Assembly: GCA_046483495.1 (NCBI GenBank)
Contig: JAWODC010000090.1
Span: 32,001 to 96,000, forward strand
Direction of reading: 5' to 3'
Length of the DNA: 64,000 nucleotides
From: Desulfobacterales bacterium
GTDB taxonomy: Bacteria; Desulfobacterota; Desulfobacteria; Desulfobacterales; UBA5616
Position numbers and translations under genes: made by a program. Under the pieces are notes generated by a model. That model saw nothing but the letters and a program-made list of their open reading frames with translations, did not search any database and was not told the origin of the DNA. Position 1 is the first letter of the stretch; each line of letters starts with the position of its first letter. Shown piece by piece: positions 3,100 to 41,513 of this stretch.

Positions 3100-3245
3100 T
3101 ACAAGCTATCTCAAAATAATCTTTTGTCCCAATATCTTCGTTTGAACCTCATGTCAAGTCATCAACATACATGAGTATGCCTGCGGCTTAACATGCGGTT
3201 TTGTCTTGATCTTGAACCAAAATATTTATTTTGGGATAGCTTGTA
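3100..3245. repeat. Palindromic ~146-bp element, terminus type C (MITE/REP-like)
   Basis: Terminal inverted repeats TACAAGCTATCTCAAAATAA ... TTATTTTGGGATAGCTTGTA. The core (TCAACATAC-atga-GTATGCCTGCGG, GTCTTGATCTTGAAC) aligns with four other copies in the window. Confidence 0.8.
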
Positions 3246-4965
3246 GTATGCGTTGCCGCAGCAAATGTTCGAGCCCATCGGAAAGGTGATGAATGCTTTT
3301 TAAAAAATAGAGGTGTCCGGGAGGAAAAAATTCCCTCAAAAAGTCCCGTGTCTGGCGGTTGCATCCACATCCGAGTGTCACCACGTCGATGGCGTGGCTT
3401 CGACAGTACCCAAGGGCTTCCCCAAGGCTCAAACCGCAATTGGCCGCACCATCCGTAATATGAATGATCAACCGGTTTTTTCCGCTCTTCTTCCGCAGCA
3501 TCGCTGCAGCCATTATGGCCTGTCCCGAGGGTGTCCGTCCCGAAGGCGTGACGGAATAAACGGTTTTGCCGTGATACAGCCGCGTCAACAGGCAGACATG
3601 CCGTTCCGCGTGATAGGCGTATATATCAAAAACATTCCCGTATCCCCGTGCGGCGGCTGCGAGGGATACAAAACTCTTTTCAGCGATTTCCCACGGCCTT
3701 CGCGACCGGCTGCCGGTGCGGCCCGGTTCCTCTTTGCCGCTCATGGATGCCGATGCATCCGCAACGATGCATATGTGCCGGTACTTGTCTTCTCCCGGTC
3801 CCTGCCTCTTTTTGAACACCTTGCCGTCAAGGGGCACCCGGTAAAGCCGCGCCGGGTCCAGTTTGCCCTCTTTCAGGCCTCGCCTGACGTGCCGAATGCG
3901 CGCCCGGCGGATCATCGAATCCTGCTTTTTAAAGATTTTTCTCAATCGTCGGACCTGAACGGCGTCAGGTGAAATGCTTGAAACCACTTCGCCTTTTACG
4001 AGCCGGGTTTCCATGGGGCGGGCTCCGGGTTCATCCACAGCAACGGCCGTGCTGTGCAATTTCAGCGGCTCTTCCTGAAGGTATGCATTCACCTCCTCGG
4101 CCAGTCCCTGACGAAGCCCCTGTGCAAATTCCGTCTCCTCACGGCCGTTCGAATCCTCATTTTCAGCGTCATCTTCCCCGATATCCACATTTTTTTCAGG
4201 ACCCGCTTCATCATACATATTCACCGCATCCGGGTTCAATGCAAACCGGCGCCATTGGGATACAACCGGTTCAACCTCATGCCACATCATTCGGTAAATG
4301 CCTGTTCTTTCTTTTCTTCTGGCGCTCATGGCATCGTGTGCCGCCACTGCCCGAATGCGTGCCCTATACGGCGCTAAAACGGCAAAAAGCTCCGTGTAAT
4401 AAAAATGAAGATGGTCCGGAATACGGCCGGTGAACCCGTAACCCTGCCAGACGGCGAACGCGCTTTCCGCAGTCGGGGGCAGGGCCGGATCTCTTGTGTT
4501 TTCCGAAAAGGCGCGGCGAAAAAACCGCGATAAATACAAGTGCCAAATGCTGTCTTTTACCAACTCATAAATGTAAATATTTTCCGAAGCGGTAACCAGG
4601 TTGTCGAGGTAAGGCATGGTATGCTCATCGAGGTTTTTAAACGGTGCCGCGGTATGTTTCCTCACCCATTCATGAAATTCCATGGCCAGAAACCCCTCAC
4701 GCACGACCTGGCCGACAAGCTGGTCGTACGTGTCGTGTGGGATCGGGTATTCCCCTTCTGTTTTTTCCGGATCCAGCAAAATAAAACGGCCGTCATCTGC
4801 AGTCATTCCTTTCCAGTATACGGGTTTGACGGCTTTTCCGATATGACCGGCCACCTTTCGCACGGCCCTTAAGGCAAGGGCCAATTCAGCGGTTTCATTG
4901 GAAGAGCGGTTGATGCGCCAATACTTGGAATAGCTCGTGGGCGTGATCGCCGGCGGTAAATTCAT
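3226..4965 (-). CDS. VWA-domain protein, BssF/AssF-like partner of the MoxR-type AAA+ ATPase
   Basis: MIDAS motif DASAS...TPSG...ITDG, preceded by GKLDPARLYR. The N-terminus YSKYWRINRS...LRAVRKVAGHIG resembles BssF-type proteins (from recall). ATGA overlap with the upstream AAA gene. Confidence 0.8.
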   Translation of the reverse strand: MNLPPAITPTSYSKYWRINRSSNETAELALALRAVRKVAGHIGKAVKPVYWKGMTADDGRFILLDPEKTEGEYPIPHDTYDQLVGQVVREGFLAMEFHEWVRKHTAAPFKNLDEHTMPYLDNLVTASENIYIYELVKDSIWHLYLSRFFRRAFSENTRDPALPPTAESAFAVWQGYGFTGRIPDHLHFYYTELFAVLAPYRARIRAVAAHDAMSARRKERTGIYRMMWHEVEPVVSQWRRFALNPDAVNMYDEAGPEKNVDIGEDDAENEDSNGREETEFAQGLRQGLAEEVNAYLQEEPLKLHSTAVAVDEPGARPMETRLVKGEVVSSISPDAVQVRRLRKIFKKQDSMIRRARIRHVRRGLKEGKLDPARLYRVPLDGKVFKKRQGPGEDKYRHICIVADASASMSGKEEPGRTGSRSRRPWEIAEKSFVSLAAAARGYGNVFDIYAYHAERHVCLLTRLYHGKTVYSVTPSGRTPSGQAIMAAAMLRKKSGKNRLIIHITDGAANCGLSLGEALGYCRSHAIDVVTLGCGCNRQTRDFLREFFPPGHLYFLKSIHHLSDGLEHLLRQRILQAIPK

Positions 4966-5822
4966 GATGCCGTGTCCGGCAGGTACAGGCAGTAGGATGC
5001 CTCTTCTGCTTGTGTTTCACCGGTTTCCACCTGAATGGAGAGCAAAAGCGATTCCAGTGTGTCAACGGAAATTTGCAGGCTGTAAATCAGGGCTTCACGA
5101 AGCGATGCGCCCATGGCGACCAACTCGGCCATCATAAGGCTATGCCGGATGGAGACCCGCATTTCGATCTGGTCGTTGTTGCGAATACGGTTGACTATTT
5201 TCAAAATCCGATCCGCCGCGGCCGCATCGATTCGGGTTTTTCGGATGAGCACTTCCTTTTCTATGGGTTGGGGCAAATATTCGAGGTGAACCCTGTAAAA
5301 CCGGTCCTTCAAGGCCTCATCCAAATCGTCCGTGCCGCTGAATGTCTCCCCTTCATTCATGGTTGCAAAAAACATCACCCCCGGTGCGACCTTGATCAAG
5401 CCCAGTTCGTCGATCCATATACTTCGGTCCTCGGATAATACGCTGAACAGTTCGTTCAGCGCATGCGGGCTTTCGGTCCGATTGATCTCCTCCAGATGAA
5501 TGACGCAACCCGGCGTCTGAATGGCCTTTGGAAAAAGAAATTCCTGAAAGTACGTTTCTCCGGATCTGAGCCGCTGCTGCCCGAAAAGCTGCCCCGCCTC
5601 GAGAAGCAGTCCAATCTGAAAGGTCGCCATGGGCCTGGTGCAGATATGGGCGAATTGCCTGACCAGAGAAGATTTTCCGCAGCCCTGGTTTCCCGTTATC
5701 AGAATATTCACCGGATGCGTTTCAGACATCCGGTGAAATCGTGCGAGATTCTCTTTGTCCGCTTTCAGAATAAAAAAGTGGGGATCGGGATCGGGTACTT
5801 TCAACTGACCGGATAAATCCAT
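4962..5822 (-). CDS. MoxR-family AAA+ ATPase, BssE/TutH/AssE-like
   Basis: Walker A GNQGCGKS; Walker B VIHLEEINR. The strings HPVNILI..QGCGKSSLVRQ, ATFQIG, FLFPKAIQTPGCVIHLEEINR and WIDELGL..VAPGV.FFAT match my recollection of TutH/BssE. Start placed at ATG 5822 after AAGGA. Confidence 0.85.
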   Translation of the reverse strand: MDLSGQLKVPDPDPHFFILKADKENLARFHRMSETHPVNILITGNQGCGKSSLVRQFAHICTRPMATFQIGLLLEAGQLFGQQRLRSGETYFQEFLFPKAIQTPGCVIHLEEINRTESPHALNELFSVLSEDRSIWIDELGLIKVAPGVMFFATMNEGETFSGTDDLDEALKDRFYRVHLEYLPQPIEKEVLIRKTRIDAAAADRILKIVNRIRNNDQIEMRVSIRHSLMMAELVAMGASLREALIYSLQISVDTLESLLLSIQVETGETQAEEASYCLYLPDTAS

Positions 5823-5861
5823 TATCGGGTATCCTTTCTGAAATGGATCATATCGGTGAAA

Positions 5862-5890
5862 AGTATACTGCAAGAGGTGAAAAAAGGCAA
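5862..5890 (-). promoter_or_regulatory. Putative sigma70 promoter of the BssE/BssF-like operon
   Basis: TTGCCT-17 nt-TATACT on the minus strand, about 40 nt upstream of the ATG. Confidence 0.6.
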
Positions 5891-5936
5891 ATAACATTTA
5901 AAAATGGTGGATACGGCCGGCATTCAGCCGAAGCAT

Positions 5937-6683
5937 CTATCTCAACCCCCTGCTTTTCTTGATATCCTCATATGCGGCTTGTATCTCTTGAAATTTCTCG
6001 TTGGCAAACCGAATGAAGTCCTCCGGCAGCCCTTTCGATGCGATCTTGTCCGGATGAAAATCGCTGACCCGTTTGCGGTATCGATGTTTGATCATATCAT
6101 CCGAATCGTCGATAGTGCAGCCTAAAACCGCATAGGATGAGCCGGCGGCGCCTTTTGCATATTTTTGAAGAACGGATCGATAATACCGGCGGCTGAGATG
6201 AAATATGTCGACACCGGCCAGAACGAGTTTTTCTTTGTCATGCGTTATCCTTCCATCAGCCGAAGCAATACGAACGAGAATGTCGATCATCAATTCCAAA
6301 TACTGCGGCCGGTTTGCAAATTCGGCGTAAAATTGGAAGGCAAAGTCTTCAAAACGCCGGTCGGTATCCATGGCGGAATGAAAAATGTGCATGGCCGTGT
6401 TCCGGCCGAGCGCATCCAGGTTCAAATCGTCGACCATCAGACGTGTAACGGCATCCATCTCCTTCTGTTTCACCGGTCCATCCACACGGACCAGTTTGGC
6501 CAGCATGGAAAACGCCGCCACATAAAATATCGACTGCGGGGATTTTCGGCATGAAAGGCGCGGCTCGTCCATTTCCCCGGAAGCATCGAGTACATGTCCG
6601 AAGGCCGCTCCCGCTAAAGCCCCCAGGGGGCCTGCTACGGCAAACCCGATCGTACCGCCGACGATTTTCCCCACGACACCCAT
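5937..6683 (-). CDS. djlA: DjlA-like co-chaperone (N-terminal membrane anchor, TerB-like domain, C-terminal J domain)
   Basis: N-terminus GKIVGGTIGFAVAGPLGA..G..FGH; J-domain FHPDK...KFQEIQAAYE. Confidence 0.88.
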   Translation of the reverse strand: MGVVGKIVGGTIGFAVAGPLGALAGAAFGHVLDASGEMDEPRLSCRKSPQSIFYVAAFSMLAKLVRVDGPVKQKEMDAVTRLMVDDLNLDALGRNTAMHIFHSAMDTDRRFEDFAFQFYAEFANRPQYLELMIDILVRIASADGRITHDKEKLVLAGVDIFHLSRRYYRSVLQKYAKGAAGSSYAVLGCTIDDSDDMIKHRYRKRVSDFHPDKIASKGLPEDFIRFANEKFQEIQAAYEDIKKSRGLR

Positions 6684-6813
6684 GTTCGAGACCCTTTAAA
6701 ACAACTGAAATAGAAGTTTTCCACCTATAAAAAACAGCTTCTGCTGTCAAGGGATAATCCGCCGTGTACGCTAGTGCAATCGGAGATCAGAAGGAAGAGC
6801 GGGATGGGACGAT

Positions 6814-7824
6814 TCAGATCGAATCCATAAAGAAGCGGTTGATCCGCTCCGTCTGCTCCCGGCCGATGACGGTATTGAAGCCCTCGAACCACCTCTCCGG
6901 CCGGGTTTCAACACCCGCCATCACGGAATCCCCTCTTCCGACGATATTGAAGTAGCGCTGCTGGGCCATGCGGCCGGCAAGGAGCGTACCGATAGGGTAA
7001 AGCGCCATGCCGTATCCCATCTCGTAGAGTTCACGCGGGCTCTTATAGGGGGTTTTCGGACTGCCTTCGATCATATTGGCGACAAGAACGACCCCGGAGC
7101 CCTTGAATGCATCGGCCGCCTGCAGCAGTTGGGATTCGCCTTCCAGAGCTTCTAGAAAAATGAGTTCGGCTCCTGCCTCCCCATACCGCAGGCCGCGACG
7201 GATTCCCTCGTTGAATCCGAGGGGTGATATGGCATCCGTCCGGGCCATTACAAGAAAATCGCTCTGACTGCCGGCATAGCTGACCGCCGGTTTCAGTCGA
7301 TACTCGATCATTTCTTCGGCGGATATGACCTGTTTTCCCGTTCCCCGGGCACCTTCCATGTGACCGCACGATTTATTGATCGCGTATTGATCTTCAAGTT
7401 GCACATACTGCGCGCCCTGTTTGTGCATTTGACGACAGGTGAGAACGACCGATGCCGCCTCATTGCCGTACCCGGTATCGATATCCACTCCAATGGGAAA
7501 GGCCGGTTTTCCCGTATCCAATGCGGCAAACCAGGTGGCCTGCTCGATAATGTTCGTTTGCTGAGCGACTTCCGCCCTGAGAATGTATCCCATGTCCGGC
7601 AGCCCGTACCCGGCGGCGCACAGATATCCGGAAACGAACGTAATGAAACCGCCGACAAATTCCGGCACGGCCGCCTGAGCCTCGAGCTCATAAATCGTAT
7701 GGTGGAGCTGCCGCGCCTCGTAGCCGTTTGCTACGCCGATGCCGATCAAAATCCGATCACCTTTTTTCTCGATCATCTCGCGCAGGTTCAACCGCTTCGC
7801 TTTCCATGAAATCTCAGCCTTCAT
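6814..7824 (-). CDS. Isocitrate lyase/PEP mutase family C-C lyase (divergent)
   Basis: Motifs GLPDMG, VDIDTGYG, QLEDQ...KSCGH, MARTDA and AGAELIFLEA. Start placed at ATG 7824 (TAATG overlap with the ACT gene). Confidence 0.85.
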   Translation of the reverse strand: MKAEISWKAKRLNLREMIEKKGDRILIGIGVANGYEARQLHHTIYELEAQAAVPEFVGGFITFVSGYLCAAGYGLPDMGYILRAEVAQQTNIIEQATWFAALDTGKPAFPIGVDIDTGYGNEAASVVLTCRQMHKQGAQYVQLEDQYAINKSCGHMEGARGTGKQVISAEEMIEYRLKPAVSYAGSQSDFLVMARTDAISPLGFNEGIRRGLRYGEAGAELIFLEALEGESQLLQAADAFKGSGVVLVANMIEGSPKTPYKSPRELYEMGYGMALYPIGTLLAGRMAQQRYFNIVGRGDSVMAGVETRPERWFEGFNTVIGREQTERINRFFMDSI

Positions 7825-8228
7825 TATGGATTCCCTTTCAGGATGCGTTTTGTTTCTTCTATCTGCTGCACTTTCACCACCAGGTATGTTCGATCGTTGC
7901 TTCCATGAACGGATGCATAAATGTAATCGATATTGATGCCGTTCTCGGCGAGAATGGCCGCTATATGGCCGGTTGCGCCGGGGGTATTTGGAATCGTAAC
8001 CAGGAATACATCCGCCTCGATAACCCGGAAACCGGCGGCTTTCAGGGCCCGGCGGGTCTCGTCGCCTTTTTCCGGGACAATCCGCAGGACGGCTTCTTCG
8101 ACCGTGTCGATCGCACAGACGGCATACAGATTGATCGACTGATCCGAAATCAATCGGCACAACTCCGCCAGTGCTCCGACACGATTTTCTAAAAACACGG
8201 AATACTGTTTGGCAAGTTGAAATTCCAT
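7824..8228 (-). CDS. Tandem ACT-domain protein
   Basis: KQYSVFLENRVGALA...INLYA, then NTPGATGHIAAILAENGINIDYIYAS: two ACT repeats. Confidence 0.88.
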   Translation of the reverse strand: MEFQLAKQYSVFLENRVGALAELCRLISDQSINLYAVCAIDTVEEAVLRIVPEKGDETRRALKAAGFRVIEADVFLVTIPNTPGATGHIAAILAENGINIDYIYASVHGSNDRTYLVVKVQQIEETKRILKGNP

Positions 8229-8232
8229 CAGT

Positions 8233-9546
8233 TTATTCTCCCCTGTCGGATTCGAGGAGGTGAAGGATTCCTTCCGCATGCCTTCGTGCCGCCCCTTGAT
8301 GGTCCAGCACCGCCTTTTTTGCTTTCCGCCCCAAATCACGTCTTTTCGTTTCATTCATCAGGTAAAACACGATTTTTTCAGCCAATTCTTCACCGCTCCT
8401 CACCAAAAAAGCATCCCCCACAGCGGCTTCGACGAGGTCTTTCGCCTCCTGGAAATCCTCCATGTAGGGTCCATAAAACACGGGTTTGCCCCAGACGGCC
8501 GCCTCCAGCAGGTTTTGTCCGCCAAGCGGCACCAGGCTGCCGCCGCAGAAAGCGACACTCGATACGCCGTATACGGCGGCGAGCTCACCGATGGTGTCCA
8601 TAATCGTGATGTTTGCGGTGCGCCGGGCGTGATGTCCATTGAATCCGGAGCGCAGTTGTGGATCGAATCCCCTTTCCACGGCGAGATCATAAATGGAGGA
8701 AGCCCGGTCGATGTGCCGGGGAGCGATAAAAAGAAGGGCTTCGGGAATTTTTCGACGGATCTTTTCATAAGCATCGAAAACGACGGACTCCTCGTTTTTC
8801 CTCGTGCTGCCGGCAACAATCACCGTTTCGTCACCCGTCAGGGAATAGATCCTGCGAATCCCATCAAGGTTTACGCGCAAATGATTTCGAATGAGCCCGT
8901 CGTACTTTGCATTGCCGTTTACGAACACCCTGTCGCGGGGAGCCCCTATTCTGCAAATTCTTTCGGCGTCTTCTTCATGAATCATGCTGAAGAAATCCAT
9001 GTGCTTCAGAATTTCCCGAAAAAACGGCAGAATCTTTTCATACCGCCTGCAGGATCGAACCGAAATCCGGCCGTTGGCCATAACCGTCTTAATGCCCGTC
9101 CGATGGGCTTCAACGATCAAGTTGGGCCAGATTTCCGTCTCGATGCACACCAGCATTTCCGGCTTTATGCAAGAAAGGGCTTTTTTAACGGCAAATGTCG
9201 CATCTACGGGTGCATACACCAAAGGAACGGCCGGCACTCTTTCCCTGGCAATCCCGTACCCGGTTTCCGTTGTCGTCGACAAGAACACCGAGGATTCCGG
9301 AGACAGGCGCTGAAGTTCTTCGGCAATCACCGCAGCGACGTTTACTTCTCCGACCGAAGCCGCATGCAGCCATATTCTGCGGCCGTCGGGCCTTAATTTC
9401 ACAATTTCCGGCGAATAAAATCCAAGCCGCTGATCCAGGCTTTGAGTATACCGTCCGCTCACATTCGAGTACACTTTCAATACCGGAAATCCCAGCAGGA
9501 AAACAAGATTCGTGAACTGCCGATAGATCGAATACAAGGGATTCAT
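8233..9546 (-). CDS. waaA: 3-deoxy-D-manno-octulosonic acid (KDO) transferase
   Basis: Motifs IWLHAASVGE, ETEIWPN, NGRIS, APRHIDR and GGSLVPLGGQNLLE. Confidence 0.95.
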   Translation of the reverse strand: MNPLYSIYRQFTNLVFLLGFPVLKVYSNVSGRYTQSLDQRLGFYSPEIVKLRPDGRRIWLHAASVGEVNVAAVIAEELQRLSPESSVFLSTTTETGYGIARERVPAVPLVYAPVDATFAVKKALSCIKPEMLVCIETEIWPNLIVEAHRTGIKTVMANGRISVRSCRRYEKILPFFREILKHMDFFSMIHEEDAERICRIGAPRDRVFVNGNAKYDGLIRNHLRVNLDGIRRIYSLTGDETVIVAGSTRKNEESVVFDAYEKIRRKIPEALLFIAPRHIDRASSIYDLAVERGFDPQLRSGFNGHHARRTANITIMDTIGELAAVYGVSSVAFCGGSLVPLGGQNLLEAAVWGKPVFYGPYMEDFQEAKDLVEAAVGDAFLVRSGEELAEKIVFYLMNETKRRDLGRKAKKAVLDHQGAARRHAEGILHLLESDRGE

Positions 9547-9593
9547 TTTTCCCGGTCAACCTGTTGAATGCGTGTGGTTGGAAGAAGTCGGCA

Positions 9594-11408: not shown

Positions 11409-11608
11409 TTTTCGTCCTATCTTTGCCGCTTAAAAATAACCTGCGCCGAAATCGGATAAGAGGAAAACCGACGAGGCTGTAGGGAAAAAGATCCTCAAGC
11501 GATCGAGTACGGCGGGAATTCACCGAAAATCCCGGCCCGTCCGAAGTCGACCTTTATATACACCAGGATATTCGTGTTTCACAACCCCTTTTAGTAGAAG
11601 GGCTTAAT

Positions 11609-11755
11609 TCGGGTCCATCCAGAAACGGCTGATTCGCTCCATTTCGGCGTTGGCCGAAAAATTTTAATCCTCAAAATACATTATGTATTCCTGCGGTTAA
11701 AATTTACCGGCCGCCTTGAACTGAATCGAATTTTCTCATTTCCGGATAGACACGA
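11609..11755 (+). repeat. Palindromic ~147-bp element, terminus type A (copy 1)
   Basis: GTCCATCCAGAAACGGCTGATTCG ... CTCATTTCCGGATAGAC; near-identical to the copies at 30504-30651 and 41367-41513. Confidence 0.9.
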
Positions 11756-11817
11756 ATCCATCGGCGGCCATTATTTTATTTACAAAGACGCCGATCCATT
11801 TTAAATTGGCAGAAGGT

Positions 11818-11846
11818 TCTCAAAATAAATGATCTCAAAATAAATG
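11818..11846 (+). repeat. Tandem 14-bp direct repeat
   Basis: TCTCAAAATAAATG-A-TCTCAAAATAAATG. Confidence 0.8.
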
Positions 11847-11870
11847 GTTTTGCTTATCCGGACTCGAGGC

Positions 11871-12122: not shown

Positions 12123-12160
12123 CCTCCCCAAGTGAACTGCCTGAGAAAAGGAGGTAAAAT

Positions 12161-13970: not shown

Positions 13971-14068
13971 CTCAATGAAAAAGCCGGAGAAAACGGCGTC
14001 TTCCGTTGACCTTCCATACCCTCGGGCCGGACCGGCAGCCGGAGGCGGGCGGAACCCATCGACGGGTT

Positions 14069-26787: not shown

Positions 26788-26797
26788 CGGCTCCTCC

Positions 26798-27805: not shown

Positions 27806-27820
27806 ATCCGCTGCCGCTCC

Positions 27821-28959: not shown

Positions 28960-29958
28960 ATGAAACATCGCATTCCACTGATTATCATGTTCATCGCACT
29001 GTATGCCGTATGCCCGACATCGGGTGGCGGAGTCCGGGCAGGGCAAACGGAATTTGACGTAACCATCGCCGTCGTAAACGGTGCCGGCATTACCAAGCGG
29101 GATTTCATCTGGGCTTTGTCCAGTGAGGAGCAGCGGTTGACCAGTTCGGGCAAACTCATGTCTCCCGAAGAACTCAATGAGCTGAAAAAAAAGGTTTTAG
29201 ATCATCTGATCGATCGTGAGCTTCTGTATCAGGAAAGCATGAAAAAAAATATCGTTGTGTCCGATGTAATGGTCGATCAGGAATTCGAGAAAATGCGTGA
29301 TGCCATGATTTCCGATATCGACTTCGAAACCATCGAGGCGGAGCTGGGTATGGACATCCATCACATCAAAAACGAATTTCGGCGTGTCTTCGCCATCGAG
29401 ACGTTGATGGCCCGGGAACTGGTTATCGATGACTCGGTGTCGGAAGAGGAATCCCGGCTCTTTTACCAAGCAAACCCGGAAATGTTCACGATTCGGGGAC
29501 CGGTGTATGTCAGTCACATTCTGATACAGGTCGAATCCGGCGCCGATGCGGTACGAAAGGCCCAAGCCAAAAAAAAGGCCGAAGATATCTATAAAAGAGT
29601 ACTGTCCGGAGATGACTTCGCCCAATTGGCGAAATCCTATTCAGAGGGGCCGTCCGCCTTCCGGGGCGGTGATATCGGATGGATCAAGACCGGCCGGACC
29701 GTAAAAGCATTTGAAGACGCGGCTTTTGCCCTGAAGGTCGGTGAAATCAGCGGCATTGTTGAAACGCCTTATGGATTTCACATCATCAAGGTCATGAAAA
29801 AAATACCGGATTCGGTTTTTGCCTACGACGATATTCGGGAGCAGCTCGATGAATTCCTCAAAAAAGAAAAGGCAGACACCGTCAAAAATGCTTACGTACA
29901 GAAGCTTCGTCAAGGGGCGGATATCGACTATCTCATGGATACCGTATCCATTGACTAG
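28960..29958 (+). CDS. PpiC/parvulin-type peptidyl-prolyl isomerase (SurA/PrsA-like)
   Basis: Signal peptide; motifs AVVNG..I, SHILI, FAQLAKSYS, GGDIGW and ETPYGFHIIKV. Confidence 0.9.
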   Translation: MKHRIPLIIMFIALYAVCPTSGGGVRAGQTEFDVTIAVVNGAGITKRDFIWALSSEEQRLTSSGKLMSPEELNELKKKVLDHLIDRELLYQESMKKNIVVSDVMVDQEFEKMRDAMISDIDFETIEAELGMDIHHIKNEFRRVFAIETLMARELVIDDSVSEEESRLFYQANPEMFTIRGPVYVSHILIQVESGADAVRKAQAKKKAEDIYKRVLSGDDFAQLAKSYSEGPSAFRGGDIGWIKTGRTVKAFEDAAFALKVGEISGIVETPYGFHIIKVMKKIPDSVFAYDDIREQLDEFLKKEKADTVKNAYVQKLRQGADIDYLMDTVSID

Positions 29959-30103
29959 AACGGATCTAAAAACCTCCCCTCAGGCCCGATTTCGGCGTTG
30001 GGATGAAGGATTAAATGCTCAAGATACGCAATGTATTCCGGCGCTTGAATCCTCCCTCCCGCCTTGATCTTGGACCTGATTGAAGGTTTTGAAAGCCGTT
30101 CCA
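29956..30103 (+). repeat. Palindromic ~148-bp element, terminus type B
   Basis: Termini TAGAACGGATCTAAAAACCT ... AGGTTTTGAAAGCCGTTCCA. The core ATTTCGGCGTTGG...CTCAAGATAC..ATGTATTCC...CCGCCTTGA is shared with the type A copies. Confidence 0.8.
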
Positions 30104-30127
30104 ACATTTATTCAAAAACAGACCACC

Positions 30128-30379
30128 ATGCCCAAATACAGCCATACGTTTGTAGAAGAGTATAACGGCCTTGTCGGATTCGGACTGGACCGGAAAACGG
30201 ATGAAGCTTCTTTTGTTGTGTATCTCCAAAAATTCTCGGATGACCGGTTAATGGCCGCCTTAAAGGGGCGGCTTACAAAACCCGAAATCGAAGAAATGGT
30301 AGACCTGATCCACCGGCTGATGCGCAACCATTTTTGTGAAGAAGAATATCACCGTCTCTTTCTGAAGGAAGACTCCTGA
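30128..30379 (+). CDS. Small conserved-looking cytoplasmic protein, function unknown
   Basis: 83 aa: MPKYSHTFVEEY.GLVGFGLDR..DE...YLQKFSDD...EEYHRLFLKE. Confidence 0.7.
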   Translation: MPKYSHTFVEEYNGLVGFGLDRKTDEASFVVYLQKFSDDRLMAALKGRLTKPEIEEMVDLIHRLMRNHFCEEEYHRLFLKEDS

Positions 30380-30428
30380 ATTCGGGTCAAAAAAACCGCA
30401 CCCGACCTCTGCAGGTGAATACGATATC

Positions 30429-30505
30429 GTCCATTCGAAAACGGCTGATTCTGCGCGGGCGCCGAATAGTGTTCATCCGAAAATGAGAAAATCCGCCGGA
30501 TACTA
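30429..30505. repeat. Degenerate terminal fragments of the type A element
   Basis: GTCCATTCGAAAACGGCTGATTC (left-end-like) and TAGTGTTCATCCGAAAATGAGAAAAT...GGATACTA (right-end-like). Confidence 0.6.
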
Positions 30506-30651
30506 AATGTCCATCCAGAAATGAGATAATTCGATTCAGTTCAAGGCGGCCGGGAAATTTTAACCGCAAGAATACATTGAGTATTTTGAGGATTAAAATT
30601 TCCCGGCCAACGCCGAAATGGAGCGAATCAGCCATTTCTGGATGGGCATTA
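30504..30651 (-). repeat. Palindromic ~147-bp element, terminus type A (copy 2)
   Basis: Reverse-complement match to copies 1 and 3; begins at the TAA stop of the CoA-transferase gene. Confidence 0.9.
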
Positions 30652-31857
30652 AATAATCGCTTTTTCTTCCTTGAACGCGATAATATCGTCCCACGAATAG
30701 CCCATTTCAATTAGAATTTCTTCGGTGTGCTGCCCCAATTCAGGTGCCGTTTTCCGTATGGAAGCCGGTGTTTCTTTTAATTTGATCGGCGTATTGATCA
30801 GTTTAAACGGGCCGTGTTCCGGATGAACCACCTCCGCCACGAAATCGTTGGCCGCGGCTTGGGGATCGTTCAACGCCTCCGCCAATGTCTGAATAGGAGC
30901 CCAGATAATTTCTTTTTCATCGAACAGGGCTCCCCATTCATCACGGGGCCGGGTTGTGAAAATATCGTCAAACATGGCGATCAGCGGCGCGGGGTCTTCC
31001 GCCCGGACAAACATGTTTTCATAACGCTCATCATTCTCCAGATGCTCGATGCCGGCCACCTTGCAAAAATCCGACCAATATCGATCGGACTGCAGGCATG
31101 CCAGCATGAGCCATTTGCCGTCCTTGCATCGATATGAATTAAAGAGAGGATTGGGCACTTCTTTCCTGGAAACCCGGGTGGGTTCTTCTTCCGCAAATCC
31201 GGCACCCACTACGGACAACCCATTGCACCAGAGGGCCGTTCCCAGCAGGGAAACATCCACTTTCTGGGCCACGCCCGTCCGCTCTCTGACAAAAAGGGCC
31301 ATGGCAATTCCGCCGGCCAATGCCATAGCACTGGTATTATCGCCGTATCCCGGCAGGCACTGGGGCGGCGGTGCATCGGGTTCACCGATCATGTTCATAA
31401 TCCCGCCTCTGGCCCAAAAAGCGGCATAGTCAAACCCGGACCGCATGTATTCCGGACCCTTTTCGCCGTATCCTGTCCCATGCGCATAGATGAGGCGCGG
31501 GTTGATGCCGGCAAGCGTCTCATAATCAACCCCCAGTTTCTTCAATACATCCGCACGAACGTTTGTCACAAACACATCCGCCTGCTCGACGAGCCGGTAC
31601 ATGATCGCCCTGCCCTTTTCCACTCGTAAGTCCACGGCCATTCCCCGCTTATTCCGGTTCTCCAACTCCCAGGGAAAATTGATTTCCGGAATTTCCGTAC
31701 CGCCGCCGAACATGATGATGGCCCGTTGCGGGTCGCCGGAAACGGGGTCCTCCACTTTAATGACATCGGCCCCCATATCGGCAAGGATAGCGGTTCCGCC
31801 CGGTGCAAAAATCCATGTGGTGAAATCGATAACCTTTATTCCTTCAAGTGCCTGCAT
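30649..31857 (-). CDS. Class III CoA-transferase (CaiB/BaiF)
   Basis: Motifs LEGIKVIDFT, LADMGADVIKVE, NRNKR and APELGQHT; catalytic Asp in PGYGD. Confidence 0.93.
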   Translation of the reverse strand: MQALEGIKVIDFTTWIFAPGGTAILADMGADVIKVEDPVSGDPQRAIIMFGGGTEIPEINFPWELENRNKRGMAVDLRVEKGRAIMYRLVEQADVFVTNVRADVLKKLGVDYETLAGINPRLIYAHGTGYGEKGPEYMRSGFDYAAFWARGGIMNMIGEPDAPPPQCLPGYGDNTSAMALAGGIAMALFVRERTGVAQKVDVSLLGTALWCNGLSVVGAGFAEEEPTRVSRKEVPNPLFNSYRCKDGKWLMLACLQSDRYWSDFCKVAGIEHLENDERYENMFVRAEDPAPLIAMFDDIFTTRPRDEWGALFDEKEIIWAPIQTLAEALNDPQAAANDFVAEVVHPEHGPFKLINTPIKLKETPASIRKTAPELGQHTEEILIEMGYSWDDIIAFKEEKAII

Positions 31858-31990
31858 CGATAATTCCTCCTATTCACGTTCACATCCATTTTAAATTAAC
31901 AGCGATCACCTGAAACCGGGCCGGTGTCGGTCCGGAACCCATCCTGCTGCCTTTTTTCCTTATTATCCCGACAAAAAAGACGATTTTCGT

Positions 31991-32010
31991 AAAAGGCGAA
32001 GACGCCTTTT
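31991..32010 (-). terminator. Putative intrinsic terminator downstream of the MFS gene
   Basis: Hairpin AAAAGGCG-AAGA-CGCCTTTT. Confidence 0.5.
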
Positions 32011-32039
32011 CAGGCAACAGATGCCGTTTTCGGTTTATT

Positions 32040-33320: not shown

Positions 33321-33353
33321 GGGCGGATCTCCTTTATTAAAACGGGTTATATA

Positions 33354-35027: not shown

Positions 35028-35064
35028 AAATGATACTCTCCGCATGTAAGGTTCATCGGTCATA

Positions 35065-35898
35065 TCACACAACCATTCCGCCGTTCGGACTGATCACTTG
35101 ACCCACAAAGAAATCGGCGTCATCGGTTGACAGGAAAACCACCGCATTGGCGATTTCCCCGGGTTTTCCCATTCTCCCGATAGGTTTGCGTGAGGTGATA
35201 ATCGCTTTCACTTCAGGAGACATCGTATCCAAAAGCGGCGTATCGACATATCCCGGTGCAACGGCATTCACGTTGATGCCGGAGGCGATCACCTCGAGGG
35301 CCACGGACTTTGTAAATGCGATAATACCGCCCTTGGCCGCGGAATAGGAAGGCGCTCCGGGGCATCCCTGCATGCCGCAGATCGACGCCATGTTGATAAT
35401 TTTGCCACGCCTTTTTTCTTCCATAATTTTCAATGCTTCCCGGGTGCAGTAAAACGTGCCGTTTAAATGCACATCGATCATGCTGTGCCAGTACTCGTCC
35501 TTAAACGAAGACGTCACCCGCATGCCGTCCTGCGCCTTGCCAAGCGTTGCCGTTTCTTCCGTCATGCGCACATAAGTGGCGTTCACGGCGTCCGTGAATT
35601 CCTTCCAGTCGGCACGTGCGCTGAATCCCGCATTGTTCACCAGGATGTCAAGGGTTCCCCACCGGGACACCAATTCCTCGAACATGGCCCTTACCTGATC
35701 CACATTTCCGACATCCGCCTGAAGCCCGATGGCTTGAGCTCCGTTTTCTTTCAGCATGGAAAGCGTTTTTTCGATGCCGTCCGGATTGATATCGTTTACT
35801 GCGATGCAAGCTCCCTCGGCGGCCATTTGCCGGGCGATAGTCCTTCCGAATCCGGACCCCGAACCGGTGATCAGGGCCACTCTGTCTTTCAGCTTCAT
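35065..35898 (-). CDS. Short-chain dehydrogenase/reductase
   Basis: Motifs TGSGSGFG, LVNNAG, YSAAK and NAVAPG. Confidence 0.93.
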   Translation of the reverse strand: MKLKDRVALITGSGSGFGRTIARQMAAEGACIAVNDINPDGIEKTLSMLKENGAQAIGLQADVGNVDQVRAMFEELVSRWGTLDILVNNAGFSARADWKEFTDAVNATYVRMTEETATLGKAQDGMRVTSSFKDEYWHSMIDVHLNGTFYCTREALKIMEEKRRGKIINMASICGMQGCPGAPSYSAAKGGIIAFTKSVALEVIASGINVNAVAPGYVDTPLLDTMSPEVKAIITSRKPIGRMGKPGEIANAVVFLSTDDADFFVGQVISPNGGMVV

Positions 35899-36123
35899 CA
35901 GTTCTCCTTTCGTTGAAGATCGGCTGATTTATTGAAATCGAATTGTTTTTCTGCTGCTGCAATTCGTGCAGTGTTTTTCGCAAAGAGAATACGATATGTC
36001 CGGTCCAAAGCGAAGGAAGCGGACCATCGGTGCGGATCCGTTTCATATAGCGAATTTCACGGAAGAACACAAATCGAATTGCAAGGGATGAACGGTTTGT
36101 CCAGCATTGAACATCAGACGATG

Positions 36124-37008
36124 TCAATCGTCCTTCGGGTCCACGTGAACGAGAACCTTATCCACTTGTCTGACATCCCGAATAATGCAGGTTTCCACCG
36201 TTTTGGCGATATCATGCCCCCGGCTGACGCTCATTCGCCCATCCACTACCACATGGATCTCCATCTGCAAATGCCCTGCCAGGCTGCGAACCCTTAAATC
36301 GTGCACATCGAGAACACCGTTTACAGACAGTGAACAAGCCTTGATTTTATCGACAATTTCCTCTGGGGGTGCCGTATCCGTGATCTCCCTAAACGTGCTG
36401 GTAATTATTTCCACCGCTATTTTAGCGATAAAGAAGGCGACAACCAGGGCGGCAACCGAATCTAGAAAATACCATGAAGGATTTACGATAGCGCCGGTTA
36501 CTCCGATGAGAACGGCTATCGACGAAAGGGAGTCGGTTCTATGATGCCATGCATTTGCAATAATCAGCTGATTGCCGAGGCGCTTTCCGATGTAAACGGT
36601 GTATCGGTACATTGCCTCTTTCAGGACAATGGAAACAGCGGCTCCGGCAATCGCCGTAATCGTGGGATGCCGAATCTGCTTTTCGTAGATATCTGTGATC
36701 GCCTCCACACCGATAAAAGCACCCGTTGCCAGGAGAACCAGACCCACACCGGCGGAAGCCATTGTCTCTATTCTGCCGTGGCCGAAATGATGCTCCGAGT
36801 CCGGTGGTTTTCCACCCATTTGCAGCCCCAGCAGCACCACGACATCGGTAAATAGGTCCGATACCGAGTGCACGGCATCGGCAATCAATGCCCGGCTGTC
36901 CCCGAAAACACCGGCAGCCGCTTTCAGCAGGATCAAAAGGCTGTTGACGGCAAGTCCGGCAACCGTCACCCTTCTTCCGGCATTTTGGTGAATCGTGTTA
37001 CGGGTCAT
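36124..37008 (-). CDS. Cation diffusion facilitator (FieF-like)
   Basis: Motifs ADAVHSVSD, HHFGHGRIE, AWHHRTD and VHVDP. Confidence 0.92.
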   Translation of the reverse strand: MTRNTIHQNAGRRVTVAGLAVNSLLILLKAAAGVFGDSRALIADAVHSVSDLFTDVVVLLGLQMGGKPPDSEHHFGHGRIETMASAGVGLVLLATGAFIGVEAITDIYEKQIRHPTITAIAGAAVSIVLKEAMYRYTVYIGKRLGNQLIIANAWHHRTDSLSSIAVLIGVTGAIVNPSWYFLDSVAALVVAFFIAKIAVEIITSTFREITDTAPPEEIVDKIKACSLSVNGVLDVHDLRVRSLAGHLQMEIHVVVDGRMSVSRGHDIAKTVETCIIRDVRQVDKVLVHVDPKDD

Positions 37009-37304
37009 GGTTCAAAACAGCCGGTCCTGGTGCGGGTGAATGGAAACCGTTTTCATGTTTTCGTTGCCGACGTTGATCGCATTTTCGGTAAAAGCGGGTT
37101 ATAAACGCCGATTCTGAGGCAAGGCGTGATGTGCAAACCGGTGGCCATTTTAACAGCCGGCATGTCGACCCGGTCCTCTTCCGGACCAAAATCGACAATT
37201 TTGGATCCAAACTCGCCAATTGCGTCGTTTAGCGAAAAAATATCGTAAACCCTTCAACTCGTCAATTCAAATTCCACCCGAAACGGATAATATTTTTTTG
37301 CCGG

Positions 37305-37333
37305 TTGTCTTGCCAATCCGCCAAATCTATACT
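37305..37333 (+). promoter_or_regulatory. Putative sigma70 promoter of the CbbQ/NorQ-type operon
   Basis: TTGTCT-17 nt-TATACT. Confidence 0.55.
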
Positions 37334-37458
37334 ATTAATTAAACAGTGCCGTTCGTAAACGGCTGGCACCTCCATTTCCGCGTTGATCCGGACCTGAGCC
37401 CCGACACATCCATCTCAAGCTGATACGCCACTTTTGACTTTCACAGGACAAAAAAACC

Positions 37459-38289
37459 ATGACCGAGGCAATCCGAAATATTCGAATCGATGAAAAAAGC
37501 TTTGAAATTACTACGGAGCCGTTTTATCTGCCGCAAGCCGGTGAAATGTTTTTATTCGAGGCGGCCTATAATAATCAACTGCCGGTAATGCTCAAGGGGC
37601 CTACCGGCAGCGGGAAAACCCGGTTGATCGAGCACATGGCCTGGAAATTGAAACGCCCCTTGTACACCGTTGCCTGCCATGATGACCTGAGCGCCAATGA
37701 TCTGGTCGGCCGTTACATCATCGTCGGGGACGAGGTGGAATGGATCGACGGTCCTCTGTTGATGGCCCTGAAGAACGGCGGCATCGTTTACCTTGACGAA
37801 ATTGTGGAGGCCAGAAAAGACACCACCGTTGTGATTCATCCCCTCACGGACCATCGCCGGTACCTGCATGTCGAGAAGCTGGGAAAAATATTCACCGCCA
37901 GAGACGAATTTATGCTGGTCATCAGCTACAATCCGAATTACCAGAGTATCGTCAAGGAGCTCAAACCCAGCACACGTCAGCGTTTTGTGACCATCGACCT
38001 GACCTGGCCCGAAGAGGAGCTCGAAATCCGGATCATCATTCAGGAAACCGGGGTCGACCGGACAACAGCCCGGAATCTGGTAAAGGCCGCCGGTAAAATT
38101 CGGCATCTCACGCACCAGGGGCTTGAAGAAGGTGTTTCGACCCGCGAACTGGTATATGCGGGGCTGCTGCTGAAAAGCGGGGTCGCACCCAAAGATGCGC
38201 TCTATGCCACTCTGGTGGAATCGCTGACCCATGACACGGACCTCAAGGAAGGCATAACAGAAGTGCTGAAAAATTATTTTCATTTTTAG
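37459..38289 (+). CDS. CbbQ/NirQ/NorQ-family AAA+ ATPase
   Basis: Motifs EPFYLP, LKGPTGSGKTR, VACHDDLSANDLVGR, YLDEIVEARKDTTVVIHPLTDHRR, SYNP.YQ, STRQRF and EGVSTR. Confidence 0.95.
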   Translation: MTEAIRNIRIDEKSFEITTEPFYLPQAGEMFLFEAAYNNQLPVMLKGPTGSGKTRLIEHMAWKLKRPLYTVACHDDLSANDLVGRYIIVGDEVEWIDGPLLMALKNGGIVYLDEIVEARKDTTVVIHPLTDHRRYLHVEKLGKIFTARDEFMLVISYNPNYQSIVKELKPSTRQRFVTIDLTWPEEELEIRIIIQETGVDRTTARNLVKAAGKIRHLTHQGLEEGVSTRELVYAGLLLKSGVAPKDALYATLVESLTHDTDLKEGITEVLKNYFHF

Positions 38290-39657
38290 ATGGTGTCCTG
38301 TCGAATTATGGATCCGAACATAGCCCATAAAAACCCCGAAACATTCGCCGGAACGTTTTCCACGGTCGATGAACGTTCATCTTTGGACGATCTCCTGGTG
38401 TCGGTCTCACGTTCGCTTTCCAAACAGGGATCGGACATCCCGGGAAAGGTAAGGCGGCTTGGCAGCCAAATTTCCCGGTACAGCCTGAAAACAGCAGCCG
38501 GGATGATCGTATGCAGCCCCGGAATCGTTGACCGGGTCGGCTTCCAGGGGCTCGAAAAAATTTCCCGTATCGGCATCGGGCTTTCCCGGAACTGTTGGGT
38601 AACCGCCGTGGAAATGTTCAAGAACAGTCCCGGATTGATTGACGTCCTCATGCCGATGGGGGGACGCAAACTGGTCCTGGATGTATATGAGCTGAGTGAG
38701 CGGGTCTGCCCATACAGCTGGAAAACCGCTGCCGGAATGCTGGACAGCAGCCCCTCGATCATCCGGCGGGTGGGCATCGAAGGGCTATACGCGATTGCGG
38801 AAATGGGGATACGGATAGCCCCGGGATGCTGGTTGACCGCTATGGGAAATTTCGAAAAAAGCCCGCGGCTTATCGACCGGCTGTCACGTTACTGCGACAA
38901 AGAAATGATCATGGATGTTTTGGACTTAGGCGCCGCAGCATCACATACCAGTTGGCAAATGGCCGTCCGCCTCATGGAAGAAAGCCCGGCGCTTATCAGC
39001 CGTGTCGGGTTTTCCGGGCTTCAAAAAATGGCGATTTTCGGTGGAAAGATTGCACGGCACAGTTGGCTCGGTGCCGTAGAAATGATTGAAAGAAGCACGG
39101 TACTCATCGATGATATCCTCGATCTCGGAACGGCATCGCTGGTGCTTGAAATTTGCGACACCTGCGGGCGGGCGGCGGATGTGTGTTGGCGTACCGCCGT
39201 TCACCTGTTTTACAAAAGTCCCTTTCTTATCGATCGTGTCGGAACGGCGGGATTTCAGCATGTGGCAGAGAAAGCCTGTGAACTGGCACAAAGCAATACG
39301 GAAAGGGCCGTTTCCTTCATAAACGGGGAATCGTTGGAGGGCGCCTCATTTATGGCCGGCATTTCGGACGGCATCGCGCTTTCGGAAGTGAAACCGATTC
39401 TTGCCAATTACCTCAATGCACTGTTGAGTTACCGCATTGAAATCGCCGGGGCCGTGGGTCACGCAACCGACGGGCGCAAGATTTTTCTTCCCGAAAGCGT
39501 GAACGATTTCAATGAGAAGAAGAAAAATTTCATGATGTATAAAATATACGCCACCCATGAAGAGGCCCACCTGGAATACGGCAGTTTCGACTTTTCCCTT
39601 TCCGAAATCCGGGAAACCGTGGATAACATCACCGCCCGTTATGGGAAACGGTCATGA
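38290..39657 (+). CDS. Helical-repeat protein ending in the N-terminal zincin-like segment of NorD/CbbO (HExxH)
   Basis: Seven repeats of [SC]W.TA..(M/F)..SP.LI alternating 37 and 41 aa; then TDGRKIFLP...THEEAHLEYGSF. Start could be 38290 or 38308. Confidence 0.8.
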   Translation: MVSCRIMDPNIAHKNPETFAGTFSTVDERSSLDDLLVSVSRSLSKQGSDIPGKVRRLGSQISRYSLKTAAGMIVCSPGIVDRVGFQGLEKISRIGIGLSRNCWVTAVEMFKNSPGLIDVLMPMGGRKLVLDVYELSERVCPYSWKTAAGMLDSSPSIIRRVGIEGLYAIAEMGIRIAPGCWLTAMGNFEKSPRLIDRLSRYCDKEMIMDVLDLGAAASHTSWQMAVRLMEESPALISRVGFSGLQKMAIFGGKIARHSWLGAVEMIERSTVLIDDILDLGTASLVLEICDTCGRAADVCWRTAVHLFYKSPFLIDRVGTAGFQHVAEKACELAQSNTERAVSFINGESLEGASFMAGISDGIALSEVKPILANYLNALLSYRIEIAGAVGHATDGRKIFLPESVNDFNEKKKNFMMYKIYATHEEAHLEYGSFDFSLSEIRETVDNITARYGKRS

Positions 39658-41369
39658 ACGGTGCAACCGATATCGAGACGTTTTTTCAGCTTTTTCCCGA
39701 ACCGAATATGGCCCGGGATCTTTTCAATATCCTCGAGGATTTCAGGATCGAGTCGCGAATAAAAGACGAATACCCCGTTCTGGGAGAACAGGTCATCGAG
39801 GTCAACCTGTTCCTGCTGAATCGGCGGCCGGACTTAGACGACATGGCCGGCGACAAGCAGCGGATCGTCGAAATCATCGGGCAGTGGCTCACCACTGGAA
39901 AAACGAAACAGGATGTTCCCCCCCGTCTATTATCGCTCTTTGAATTCGCCCAGGCCCTTGCCGGAAAATTGGAAACCCCGCGATCATCGATTCATGATGC
40001 GGCCGCCGTCGCTTCGGAAATGTATTTCAGCATCGATGACGCCTTTCCCAAGGATGCCTACCGTCCGGTTCTTCCTTTTTCCGCTTTTATCGACCCGATG
40101 AAAACCGACAGCTATGATGCACGGCTCGGCGGCAAAGACGGTTCCAAAAGCCGTTCAGAAGCAGAACCCGAGGATAAAGACGCATCCCGACCCCCTGCGA
40201 ATGCGGCTCCTATGGAAGACCGCACCCCGCCGGTGTCACATCGTTCCGATACCGCAACCGAAGACCATCGAGAACCGGTGTTCCGGCCTTCGGATCTGCC
40301 GGAATTCGAAGCGGAAAACCCGGCCGAAGATGCCGAAGAACCCAAAAAGCGTTCCAAACGTCTGCTATTCGGCGAAGACGGCATGCAGCCGGATGATATG
40401 GACGCTGCAGATCCATTTCCGAGCGAGGCGCCGTCACGGCCCGCTGTCCCGGAATTGAGATCCTCTTCTGCAACGGGAGAGGAGCTGGAGGCGGCCCCCA
40501 TCAGCTGCCTTTACCCGGAATGGGGCGTCGATATCGAAGGCTACCGCGTCAATTGGGCACGCGTGACAGAGCGCCGGTTGTCCGGCGGATCGGAAGATTT
40601 TTACCGTAGCACATTGACCAAGTACGCCGGACTGGTGAAGAAAATCAAACGGGAATTCCAGATGCTGAGACCCGAGGGTGTGATCAAGTTCAAACGACAG
40701 GTCGATGGAAATGAGATCGATCTCGATGCCGCCGTGGAATATTTCATCGATCGAAAACTGGGGATCACCCCGTCGGAAAAAAATTATATTCGCACCCGAA
40801 AAAGCAGCCGGGACATTGCGGTCGCCTTCCTTTTGGACATGAGCGGAAGCACCCGGGGCACCGCCATTTCCCTGGAAAAGGAGGCATTGATCATCCTGTC
40901 GGAAGCGTTGCACGAACTCGGCGATACGTTCTCGATATACGGCTTTTCCGGCCACACGAGGGAAAATGTGGAATTTTTCGTCATCAAGGATTTCCTGGAG
41001 CCTTATGACCATCGGATCACCAGGAAAATATCGGCGATACGCGACCTTCACAGCACCCGTATCGGTCCCGCCATCCGTCATACCCATACCAAACTAGGCA
41101 GGCGTGAGGAAAAATTCAAACTTTTGATACTGTTGAGTGACGGAAAACCCGAAGACAGCGGATACAACGACGCCTATGGAATTGAAGATACCCGTATGGC
41201 ATTGAAGGAAGGTTTACAACAGGGAATACGGCCGTTCTGTATCACAATCGATGCGGCTGCACCGGAATACCTGCACCGGATGTACAGCCACAGCAATTGG
41301 GTGGTGATCCAAAAAATGGAAAAGCTTCCCCTGGAAATTACCCGGGTATACAAGCGCTTAACCACTTAG
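39654..41369 (+). CDS. NorD/CbbO-like VWA protein (C-terminal part of the adaptor)
   Basis: ARDLFNILEDFRIE, an acidic linker, YPEW and DGNEIDLDA; MIDAS DMSGST...STRIG...LSDGKP; YGIEDTRMA. Confidence 0.9.
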   Translation: MNGATDIETFFQLFPEPNMARDLFNILEDFRIESRIKDEYPVLGEQVIEVNLFLLNRRPDLDDMAGDKQRIVEIIGQWLTTGKTKQDVPPRLLSLFEFAQALAGKLETPRSSIHDAAAVASEMYFSIDDAFPKDAYRPVLPFSAFIDPMKTDSYDARLGGKDGSKSRSEAEPEDKDASRPPANAAPMEDRTPPVSHRSDTATEDHREPVFRPSDLPEFEAENPAEDAEEPKKRSKRLLFGEDGMQPDDMDAADPFPSEAPSRPAVPELRSSSATGEELEAAPISCLYPEWGVDIEGYRVNWARVTERRLSGGSEDFYRSTLTKYAGLVKKIKREFQMLRPEGVIKFKRQVDGNEIDLDAAVEYFIDRKLGITPSEKNYIRTRKSSRDIAVAFLLDMSGSTRGTAISLEKEALIILSEALHELGDTFSIYGFSGHTRENVEFFVIKDFLEPYDHRITRKISAIRDLHSTRIGPAIRHTHTKLGRREEKFKLLILLSDGKPEDSGYNDAYGIEDTRMALKEGLQQGIRPFCITIDAAAPEYLHRMYSHSNWVVIQKMEKLPLEITRVYKRLTT

Positions 41370-41513
41370 TACCCATCCAGAAATGGCTGATTCGCTCCAT
41401 TTCGGCGTTGGCCGGGTAATTTTAATCCTCAAAATACTCAATGTATTCGTGCGGTTAAAATTTCCCGGCCGCCTTGAACGGAATCGAATTATCTCATTTC
41501 TGGATGGATACCA
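41367..41513 (+). repeat. Palindromic ~147-bp element, terminus type A (copy 3)
   Basis: TAGTACCCATCCAGAAATGG ... CATTTCTGGATGGATACCA; begins at the TAG stop of the VWA gene. Confidence 0.9.

Follow-up and report, generated by a model that had tools for sequence, protein, structure and literature searches.

Five hairpin elements and their genomic census

The window, a stretch of 64,000 nt from a Desulfobacterales genome (GenBank assembly GCA_046483495.1, contig JAWODC010000090.1, positions 32,001 to 96,000 of the forward strand), carries five short palindromic elements among housekeeping and anaerobic-metabolism genes. A preliminary description had reported five hairpins of 146-148 nt, and they lie where it placed them, this length counting in the outer TA. 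The TA belongs to the target, not to the element, whose proper ends are GTG..CAC in type A and GAAG/CAAG..CTTC/CTTG in types B and C, for a proper length of 142-144 bp. Judging from their sequence signatures, these elements are very probably MITEs (miniature transposable elements with inverted repeats), moved by transposases of the IS5 family (IS427 type) and of the ISNCY family. Between the ends of different insertion sequences (ISs), they carry one and the same core. The neighbouring genes, together with the named genomes that have these ends in common, suggest a Desulfobacterales-type host.

A model of this core (R1) found matches at exactly five places in the window; core orientations below refer to the strand reading GCGTTG first, the opposite strand being the one that folds better. 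The type C element, 142 bp long (3102..3243, plus strand), has IS5-family (IS427-type) ends, is flanked by TA at 3100-3101 and 3244-3245 and lies between convergent genes; its core spans 3133..3212 (plus strand, 65.3 bits). The type A elements have ISNCY-type ends. The first, of 143 bp (11611..11753, plus strand; core 11642..11722, plus strand, 87.9 bits), lies between divergent genes, and its flanks TAATTC / GAATCC, alike at 4/6 positions, appear to be an eroded 6-bp duplication. The type B element of 144 bp (29958..30101, plus strand; core 29990..30070, plus strand, 69.8 bits) has mutated IS5-family ends and flanks TA / CA; its insertion point is the TA in the stop codon of a peptidyl-prolyl isomerase-like gene (28960-29958). 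The second A element (30506..30649, minus strand; core 30538..30618, minus strand, 89.3 bits; flanks TATTTA / TTAGTA, 3/6 alike) sits where a CoA-transferase gene (30649-31857, minus strand) has its stop codon, and the third, of 143 bp (41369..41511, plus strand; core 41400..41480, plus strand, 81.6 bits; flanks CACTTA / CACGTA, 5/6 alike), at that of an open reading frame (ORF) at 39654-41369.

A single long hairpin is predicted for each element (z = -4.2 to -11.1; equalled by 0/200 shuffles), and the five can be aligned without large gaps. The alignment bears out the shared motifs, the differing arms and the tips (aATAC/GTATt as against cATAC/GTATg) initially described. The C core had been called more diverged; this is seen in the window copy, but part of it is private mutation, as the C consensus keeps CGTTGG and CCGCCTTG. 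The B copy of the window has likewise mutated away from its consensus end, TAGAAGTGGTTTCAAAACC.

When the assembly (4.19 Mb, 94 contigs, 96.7% complete) was searched with profiles, 298 non-overlapping matches were obtained, 177 of them near full length. They form five subfamilies, two of which, D and E, occur in the genome beyond the three window types; the near-full-length copies number 93 (A), 36 (D), 20 (B), 16 (C) and 12 (E). A census by loose regular expressions gave mostly chance matches and was dropped. The elements are thus a short (142-144 bp), non-coding, multicopy class. Between pairs of copies, the median identity is 0.78 for A and 0.86-0.92 for the other subfamilies, and only two copies have a neighbour at >=98% identity; the bursts are therefore not of very recent date. 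In most cases, an intact E copy has a partial second one ~10-16 nt after it, oriented the same way, and the spacer is similar between unrelated loci (examples are C58:9401-9712, C4:8987-9203, C34:88450-88644 and C11:113208-113410).

Other features of the window surround the B copy and its A neighbour. Decayed A-like end fragments, recognized by sequence reading and not scored, occupy 30421..30503 beside the A copy, and 31923..32033 (minus strand) may be a heavily decayed E-like relic, with a weak nhmmer score of 20.3 bits and no R1 match. The small ORF at 30104-30390, between the two copies, is conserved in a genome of the same genus (G001). At 30555-30601, contigs of other organisms from sediment and salt-lake sequencing runs pile up on the core, with a summed depth far above that of the flanks, which suggests that related cores are abundant in those communities. 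Contigs from four sequencing runs included no joint that removes an element.

Partner insertion sequences and target duplications

Comparison of the terminal 16 bases separated two classes of ends. Those of B and C are IS5-family (IS427-type) ends: C copies, including that at 3102..3243, match them at 13-14 bases (8-9 for ISNCY ends) and a typical B copy at 15. Those of A and D are ISNCY-family ends (14-16/16 bases), with 14-15 matches for A copies (9-11 to IS5) and 16 for a D copy. An earlier likening of the A ends to IS5 elements with 3-bp repeats (11-12/16) was superseded by this match. The preliminary description had recognized three unrelated sets of termini, unexplained and freely interchangeable. 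A is indeed distinct from B and C; the latter two have related ends, hence two classes, and each class corresponds to the inverted repeats known from one IS family, with the target duplication of that family. Nor is the pattern the opposite of that of MITEs, as had been thought, since within each class the ends are constant and the arms variable, as in ordinary MITEs.

A scan of transposase loci revealed, in relatives, a 946-bp element with B-like ends and two overlapping ORFs (DUF4096 and DDE_Tnp_1) that match the IS5 model NF033580. IS5-family elements with B/C-like ends measure ~840-950 bp; among 26 DUF4096 loci examined, 20 had inverted repeats and nine had B/C-like ends. The IS427 group is characterized by two overlapping ORFs, a length of about 830-865 bp and mostly 2-bp repeats, according to the available part of its description (PMC3281130), and the two overlapping ORFs of the 946-bp element fit this group. 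The MITEs resemble it in their ends (up to 15 and 14/16 bases for B and C) and TA flanks, but hold no IS interior.

When genome contigs were scanned for the B end alone, at least 116 loci were found. Among the matches listed, 87 were closed by a second end and 38 were elements of 144-150 nt; both core motifs were present in 37/38 of the latter, with many different arms. B ends ran into an IS5 transposase in 3/123 cases, and others bracket unrelated hairpins. Such ends also enclose a GTCAT..GGATC..ATGAC hairpin type and a ~210-nt type (loci L245, L295, L316; L221, L278, L309, L317). In some Pseudoalteromonas elements (L067, L101, L118), we observed inserted GGATG hairpins like those of YPAL/RU-2.

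The corresponding scan with the A end, covering 123 loci, gave one 1,679-bp element whose 441-aa ORF scores 437 bits against the ISNCY model NF033593 (cutoff 325). Its relatives, presumably of the ISDol1 subgroup, occur in 20/141 genomes of the order, and the A/D end was present at 21/23 ISNCY loci examined. Unlike the MITEs, the autonomous ISNCY elements are 1.67-1.86 kb long, encode a transposase of 440-500 aa and carry no core. R1 found no core inside an IS at 77 IS loci, its three matches there all lying beyond the IS ends; the MITEs are thus not simple deletion products of their partners. At 27 IS630 loci of the order, the ends had at most their first 7 bases in common with A, and in viral contigs the end patterns gave nothing but chance matches. 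No mobiliser is encoded in the window, as had been stated, and none was found in the assembly. Its sole DDE_Tnp_1 gene, considered as a candidate, is of the IS1634 type with ends that do not match. IS630 transposases (DDE_3, E<=1e-15) are present in 24/38 core-negative and 27/103 core-positive genomes (Fisher p=1e-4), a comparison over the 141 genomes of the order in which kin are not independent and the negatives are partly deduced from genome handles.

The target duplications follow the two classes. With boundaries set at GTG..CAC, the 6-bp flanks of A copies (n=48) had an identity of 0.62, as against 0.42 in shuffled pairs (maximum 0.49), and those of D copies (n=31) 0.63 as against 0.48 (maximum 0.55). 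Both values exceed all 200 shuffles, and the consensus is TANNTA. Only TA flanks the B (n=17) and C (n=9) copies; a TA duplication for all types was rejected, as it failed for A and D. Exact 6-bp repeats flank 22/63 A-end elements of other genomes. Among autonomous ISNCY copies in one genome (G133), 5/6 have exact TANNTA repeats and 1/6 a 7-bp repeat. As each end type comes with its own duplication, the one made by the partner IS family, two insertion chemistries appear to carry one core within a single genome. In the A/D flanking repeat, the second base from the end is often changed in the element-side copy, from A to G on the right and from T to C on the left, more so than the central bases.

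Comparison with the genome of the same genus, G001, answered the call for empty sites. The 29956 site is empty there, and TAA closes the gene at the same codon. Out of 39 core matches in G001, 37 were fetched and 18 were syntenic; 16/18 sites are empty in the present assembly. The two occupied sites hold elements of a different type in the opposite orientation, and in G001 the gap orthologous to the 41369..41511 site contains an independent B-type copy in the opposite orientation. In-place conversion of the ends at shared sites was rejected, as 2/18 equals the 10-19% background. The elements thus combine a short, non-coding, multicopy nature with terminal inverted repeats shared with ISs, partner-type duplications, and filled and empty sites. 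Modules can be swapped, as illustrated by an A-left/D-right chimera (1/145 classifiable copies) and a B/C chimera in another genome (L296).

Only 2/163 copies lie inside genes, according to rough gene calls. Placement follows intergenic length, including divergent gaps (45/154), and orientation is not significantly biased (32 vs 46 between co-directional genes, 42 vs 29 near stops); 24/71 stop-adjacent copies start at a stop codon. Rare variants are as frequent in the motifs (171/3,799 cells, 0.045) as in the arms (171/3,668, 0.047). The copies are parasites that decay after insertion. As sites are not kept and motifs are not spared, we infer selection on donors rather than a host function for each site.

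A core shared with ERIC

Sequence comparison indicates that the interior of the elements is homologous to the core of ERIC (enterobacterial repetitive intergenic consensus). R1, trained without any ERIC, ranked an ERIC first on the whole Escherichia coli K-12 chromosome (E 2.2e-4), with two weaker matches besides. A relaxed core pattern gave 12 matches in the same genome as against two in the reversed control, 11 rows at 10 loci being ERIC-type. In the accessible part of PMC2759123 (Table 1a), the ERIC consensus has the motifs GCGTTGG and CCGCCTTG and the tip TCAC-n-TAC / GTA-n-GCTCC, and the tip spacing is the same as in the present core within 1-2 nt. Like the present elements, ERIC (IRU, RU-1; MITEEc1 in ISfinder, with the relatives MITEPlu5 and MITEYpe1) is a long imperfect palindrome, intergenic and often at stop codons, with the same core. 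It differs in its length (127 bp as against 146-148 bp with the outer TA), in the distance from motif to end (26 as against 36-37), in its unrelated arms and in its ends, which are like those of IS630-type elements in the portion of PMC6267812 at hand, as opposed to IS5 and ISNCY. Relative to ERIC/MITEEc1 in the strict sense, the elements thus have the central hairpin core, and lack the 127-bp length and whole consensus as well as the IS630-type ends.

The core is widespread. R1 matches were obtained in 103/141 genomes of the order and in 18/101 of the phylum. A strict core pattern occurs in at least 124 stretches, among them some from Gamma- and Betaproteobacteria, Desulfobacterales and Bacteroidota, one Acidobacteriota genome and Desantisbacteria, with 0 matches in viral contigs and none in plasmids. 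As far as the consulted part of PMC10969869 goes, ERIC is described from Enterobacteriaceae and Vibrionaceae only. A Psychrobium genome (G154) contains at least 232 exact, near-identical short cores, and the terminal 16 bases of a broken IS630-type gene there are identical to those of these MITEs (one locus, L549). At that locus, a core-deleted MITE copy lies inside the broken gene, whose own right end is the MITE end. ERIC (MITEEc1) and MITEPlu5 have also been tied to IS630-type ends, in the same portion of PMC6267812. Thus, the core has persisted between ends belonging to at least three families of transposases (IS5, ISNCY and IS630), in agreement with the initial view of one core carried between different ends.

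Two tandem arrays in a complete genome (G229; C1:889721-890509 and 898707-899851; L662) consist of an intergenic 356-bp unit with the core and no obvious IS ends. They were considered as cassette arrays, an idea dropped because the units are tandem repeats. No Rfam family accounts for the elements: there were 0 matches in the window at the gathering score, and only two chance-level matches at 20 related loci.

Covariation and one-strand folding support the proposal of selection for a folded single strand in which unpaired motifs are conserved. From 57 candidate cores, one was dropped for its low score, and 34 remained after removal of near-duplicates; they were aligned with MAFFT and given a hand-written structure. 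Pairing was found in 77% of cells, as against 56.5% in shuffled and 33-46% in slid controls, and 21/26 core pairs show double changes, so that the arms covary strongly. As these cores are related and partly motif-chosen, the scan with B ends alone, in which 37/38 elements have both motifs, provides the non-circular evidence for motif conservation.

The strand reading CAAGGCG first folds better in 31/34 long cores and, for short cores, in 36/47 (RNA parameters) or 40/47 (DNA parameters). On the other strand, arm oppositions are A-C in 23 cases and G-T in 3 (24 cores), which indicates that wobble pairs are tolerated on the CAAGGCG strand; the GCGTTG strand, considered earlier as the wobble strand, was thus discarded. 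Such tolerance speaks for a single folded strand and against both a cruciform and a site in plain duplex form. Although the pattern allowed spacers of 8-30, they are 11/11-12 in 105/126 matches and 22/21-22 in 11/126, with several matches per genome. The motif-to-end distance is 26 in ERIC, 36-37 here (37 in 36/37 IS5-end elements) and about 54-57 in short-core elements, steps that come close to one or two turns of the helix. The arms turn over, those of B and C being alike at 4/15 positions. A site for IHF or an outward promoter as the conserved function was rejected, as by eye the candidate bases vary among subfamilies. The core may also resemble priming hairpins (ssi/pas).

Proposed mechanism and significance

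We propose a non-autonomous element in which an IS end, a spacer stem, the shared core, a second spacer stem and another IS end follow one another. A DDE transposase supplied in trans would bind the ~16-bp ends and insert the element: an IS5-family (IS427-type) enzyme would move B and C and duplicate TA, and an ISNCY-family enzyme would move A and D, and probably E, with duplication of a 6-bp TANNTA target. The autonomous ISs would now be lost from this genome, or unassembled. The ~70-nt core, in which the stems covary and the unpaired motifs are fixed, folds best on the CAAGGCG-first strand. It would be selected for making a copy a good donor, and that it aids spread in some way appears probable to us. 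In the least secure step, the core would work while folded, as single-stranded DNA laid bare at the replication fork or in DNA transfer. Its two bulged motifs and tip, in helical phase with the paired ends, might bind a conserved host factor, such as a priming, fork-restart or DNA-shaping protein, and raise excision or the gain of copies with any transposase. Recombination at the core, or the capture of an IS end, might give rise to new end types, one arm then being copied from the other. Overall, we put at about 0.6 the probability that these are MITEs moved by the named transposases, with a core that is a strand-specific folded DNA boosting their copying.

Several observations weigh against this proposal. 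The assembly (96.7% complete, 94 contigs) yielded no IS630, IS427-type or ISNCY transposase, and across the order the presence of IS427-type genes is not tied to that of the core (11/38 core-negative vs 24/103 core-positive genomes, p=0.51). The B copy of the window agrees with IS5 ends at no more than 11-12/16 bases, the E copies (n=7) have no duplication, and positions 2 and 5 of the A/D 6-bp repeat agree less than the centre, for which we have no explanation. R1 missed 7/11 ERIC loci at E<1 (4/11 were found), and the covariation controls do not amount to probabilities. A bias towards one replication strand is weak and lacks robustness (92 vs 62, p=0.02; 25 vs 21 at strong skew). The host factor is a postulate, and the tolerance of G-T/G-U pairs fits RNA as well as DNA.

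This last point opens the way to another, unlikely, explanation, with the same MITEs and transposases, in which the core would work at the RNA level. Once co-transcribed, it would form a rod rich in G-U pairs, with fixed internal loops for RNases or an RNA-binding protein; this would make insertions tolerable or tune mRNA decay, and families keeping the core would reach a high copy number. The wobble tolerance on one strand and the many copies starting at a stop codon (24/71) would suit such a role, as would the orientation-dependent RNase E effect of ERICs in Yersinia (PMC2229807 and PMC10969869, in the parts available). However, the elements have no orientation bias relative to transcription, their placement by intergenic length includes divergent gaps (45/154), sites are not kept between congeners and the motifs decay like the arms. 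Phasing to the transposase ends would moreover be superfluous for an RNA, and no Rfam family matches.

Template switching in replication would yield covariation without selection. The core might then be a functionless remnant of one ancestral palindromic MITE, its arms kept complementary by quasi-palindrome correction and its ends swapped by recombination, as in the A-left/D-right chimera (1/145); the lack of per-copy selection agrees with this idea. Nevertheless, arm copying should erase mismatched motifs, yet these persist (37/38 in the end-only scan) while the arms turn over (4/15 between B and C). It also leaves unexplained the one-strand wobble bias, the one-turn spacing steps and the persistence across several phyla, and we regard it as improbable. 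A strand-specific fold with fixed bulges also resembles attC and IS200/IS605 hairpins, and a structure-specific enzyme, either an HUH nuclease or a recombinase (cf. REP/RAYT, attC/IntI), might move the folded core with IS-like ends as passengers. The presence of the ISs does not track that of the core, and the core arrays of G229 have no obvious IS ends, in line with this possibility. A search for an HUH/REP transposase with matching ends, suggested early on, led to two Y1 (HUH) transposase genes of 332-334 aa in this assembly (L001 859-1863 on C18, L002 1465-2463 on C94). Each is bracketed by its own short GGGGACGTTC inverted repeats, with the nearest elements 4.4 and 10 kb away, and a Y1/RAYT partner was thus rejected. 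No obvious pair of half-elements around a gene was seen by eye among partial copies, and within one genome the duplication follows the end type and is that of the matching IS family. These facts make the passenger hypothesis equally doubtful.

Transposase-driven MITEs with a strand-specific folded core are thus our preferred interpretation. REP/REPIN-RAYT systems and integron attC sites are examples of strand-specific folded DNA with conserved unpaired bases, and such folding may be how the core works. In contrast with those systems, the present elements have no GTAG-type end, linked Y1 nuclease, integrase or gene cassettes, and bear DDE-transposase footprints.

MITEs, ERIC and the IS families are already known, and ISfinder or the MITE catalogue of PMC11602168 may hold these elements as unnamed entries. 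A core shared across transposase families was not found described in the open-licence literature searched. MITE interiors are usually treated as unrelated filler, and the part of PMC3184786 consulted reports no similarity between the cores of Neisseria, E. coli and Anabaena MITEs. Here, one core is common to different transposase families and footprints in one genome, and to ERIC. With the pairs of ends and transposases named, and the motifs, strand and spacing defined, the still unexplained function of ERIC's conserved centre becomes directly testable. If the core does not boost mobility, these are ordinary MITEs with an unusually long-lived interior; if it does, bursts such as that of the >=232 near-identical Psychrobium cores are explained. 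More tentatively, ERIC might be one member of a bacteria-wide MITE superfamily defined not by its ends but by a portable, strand-specific folded module, which would recruit a conserved host protein, in helical phase with any transposase at the ends (IS5, ISNCY, IS630), so that occasional cut-and-paste transposition would be converted into amplification to hundreds of copies. The module would then be a general, transposase-independent enhancer of transposition, which would explain the conservation of ERIC's interior.

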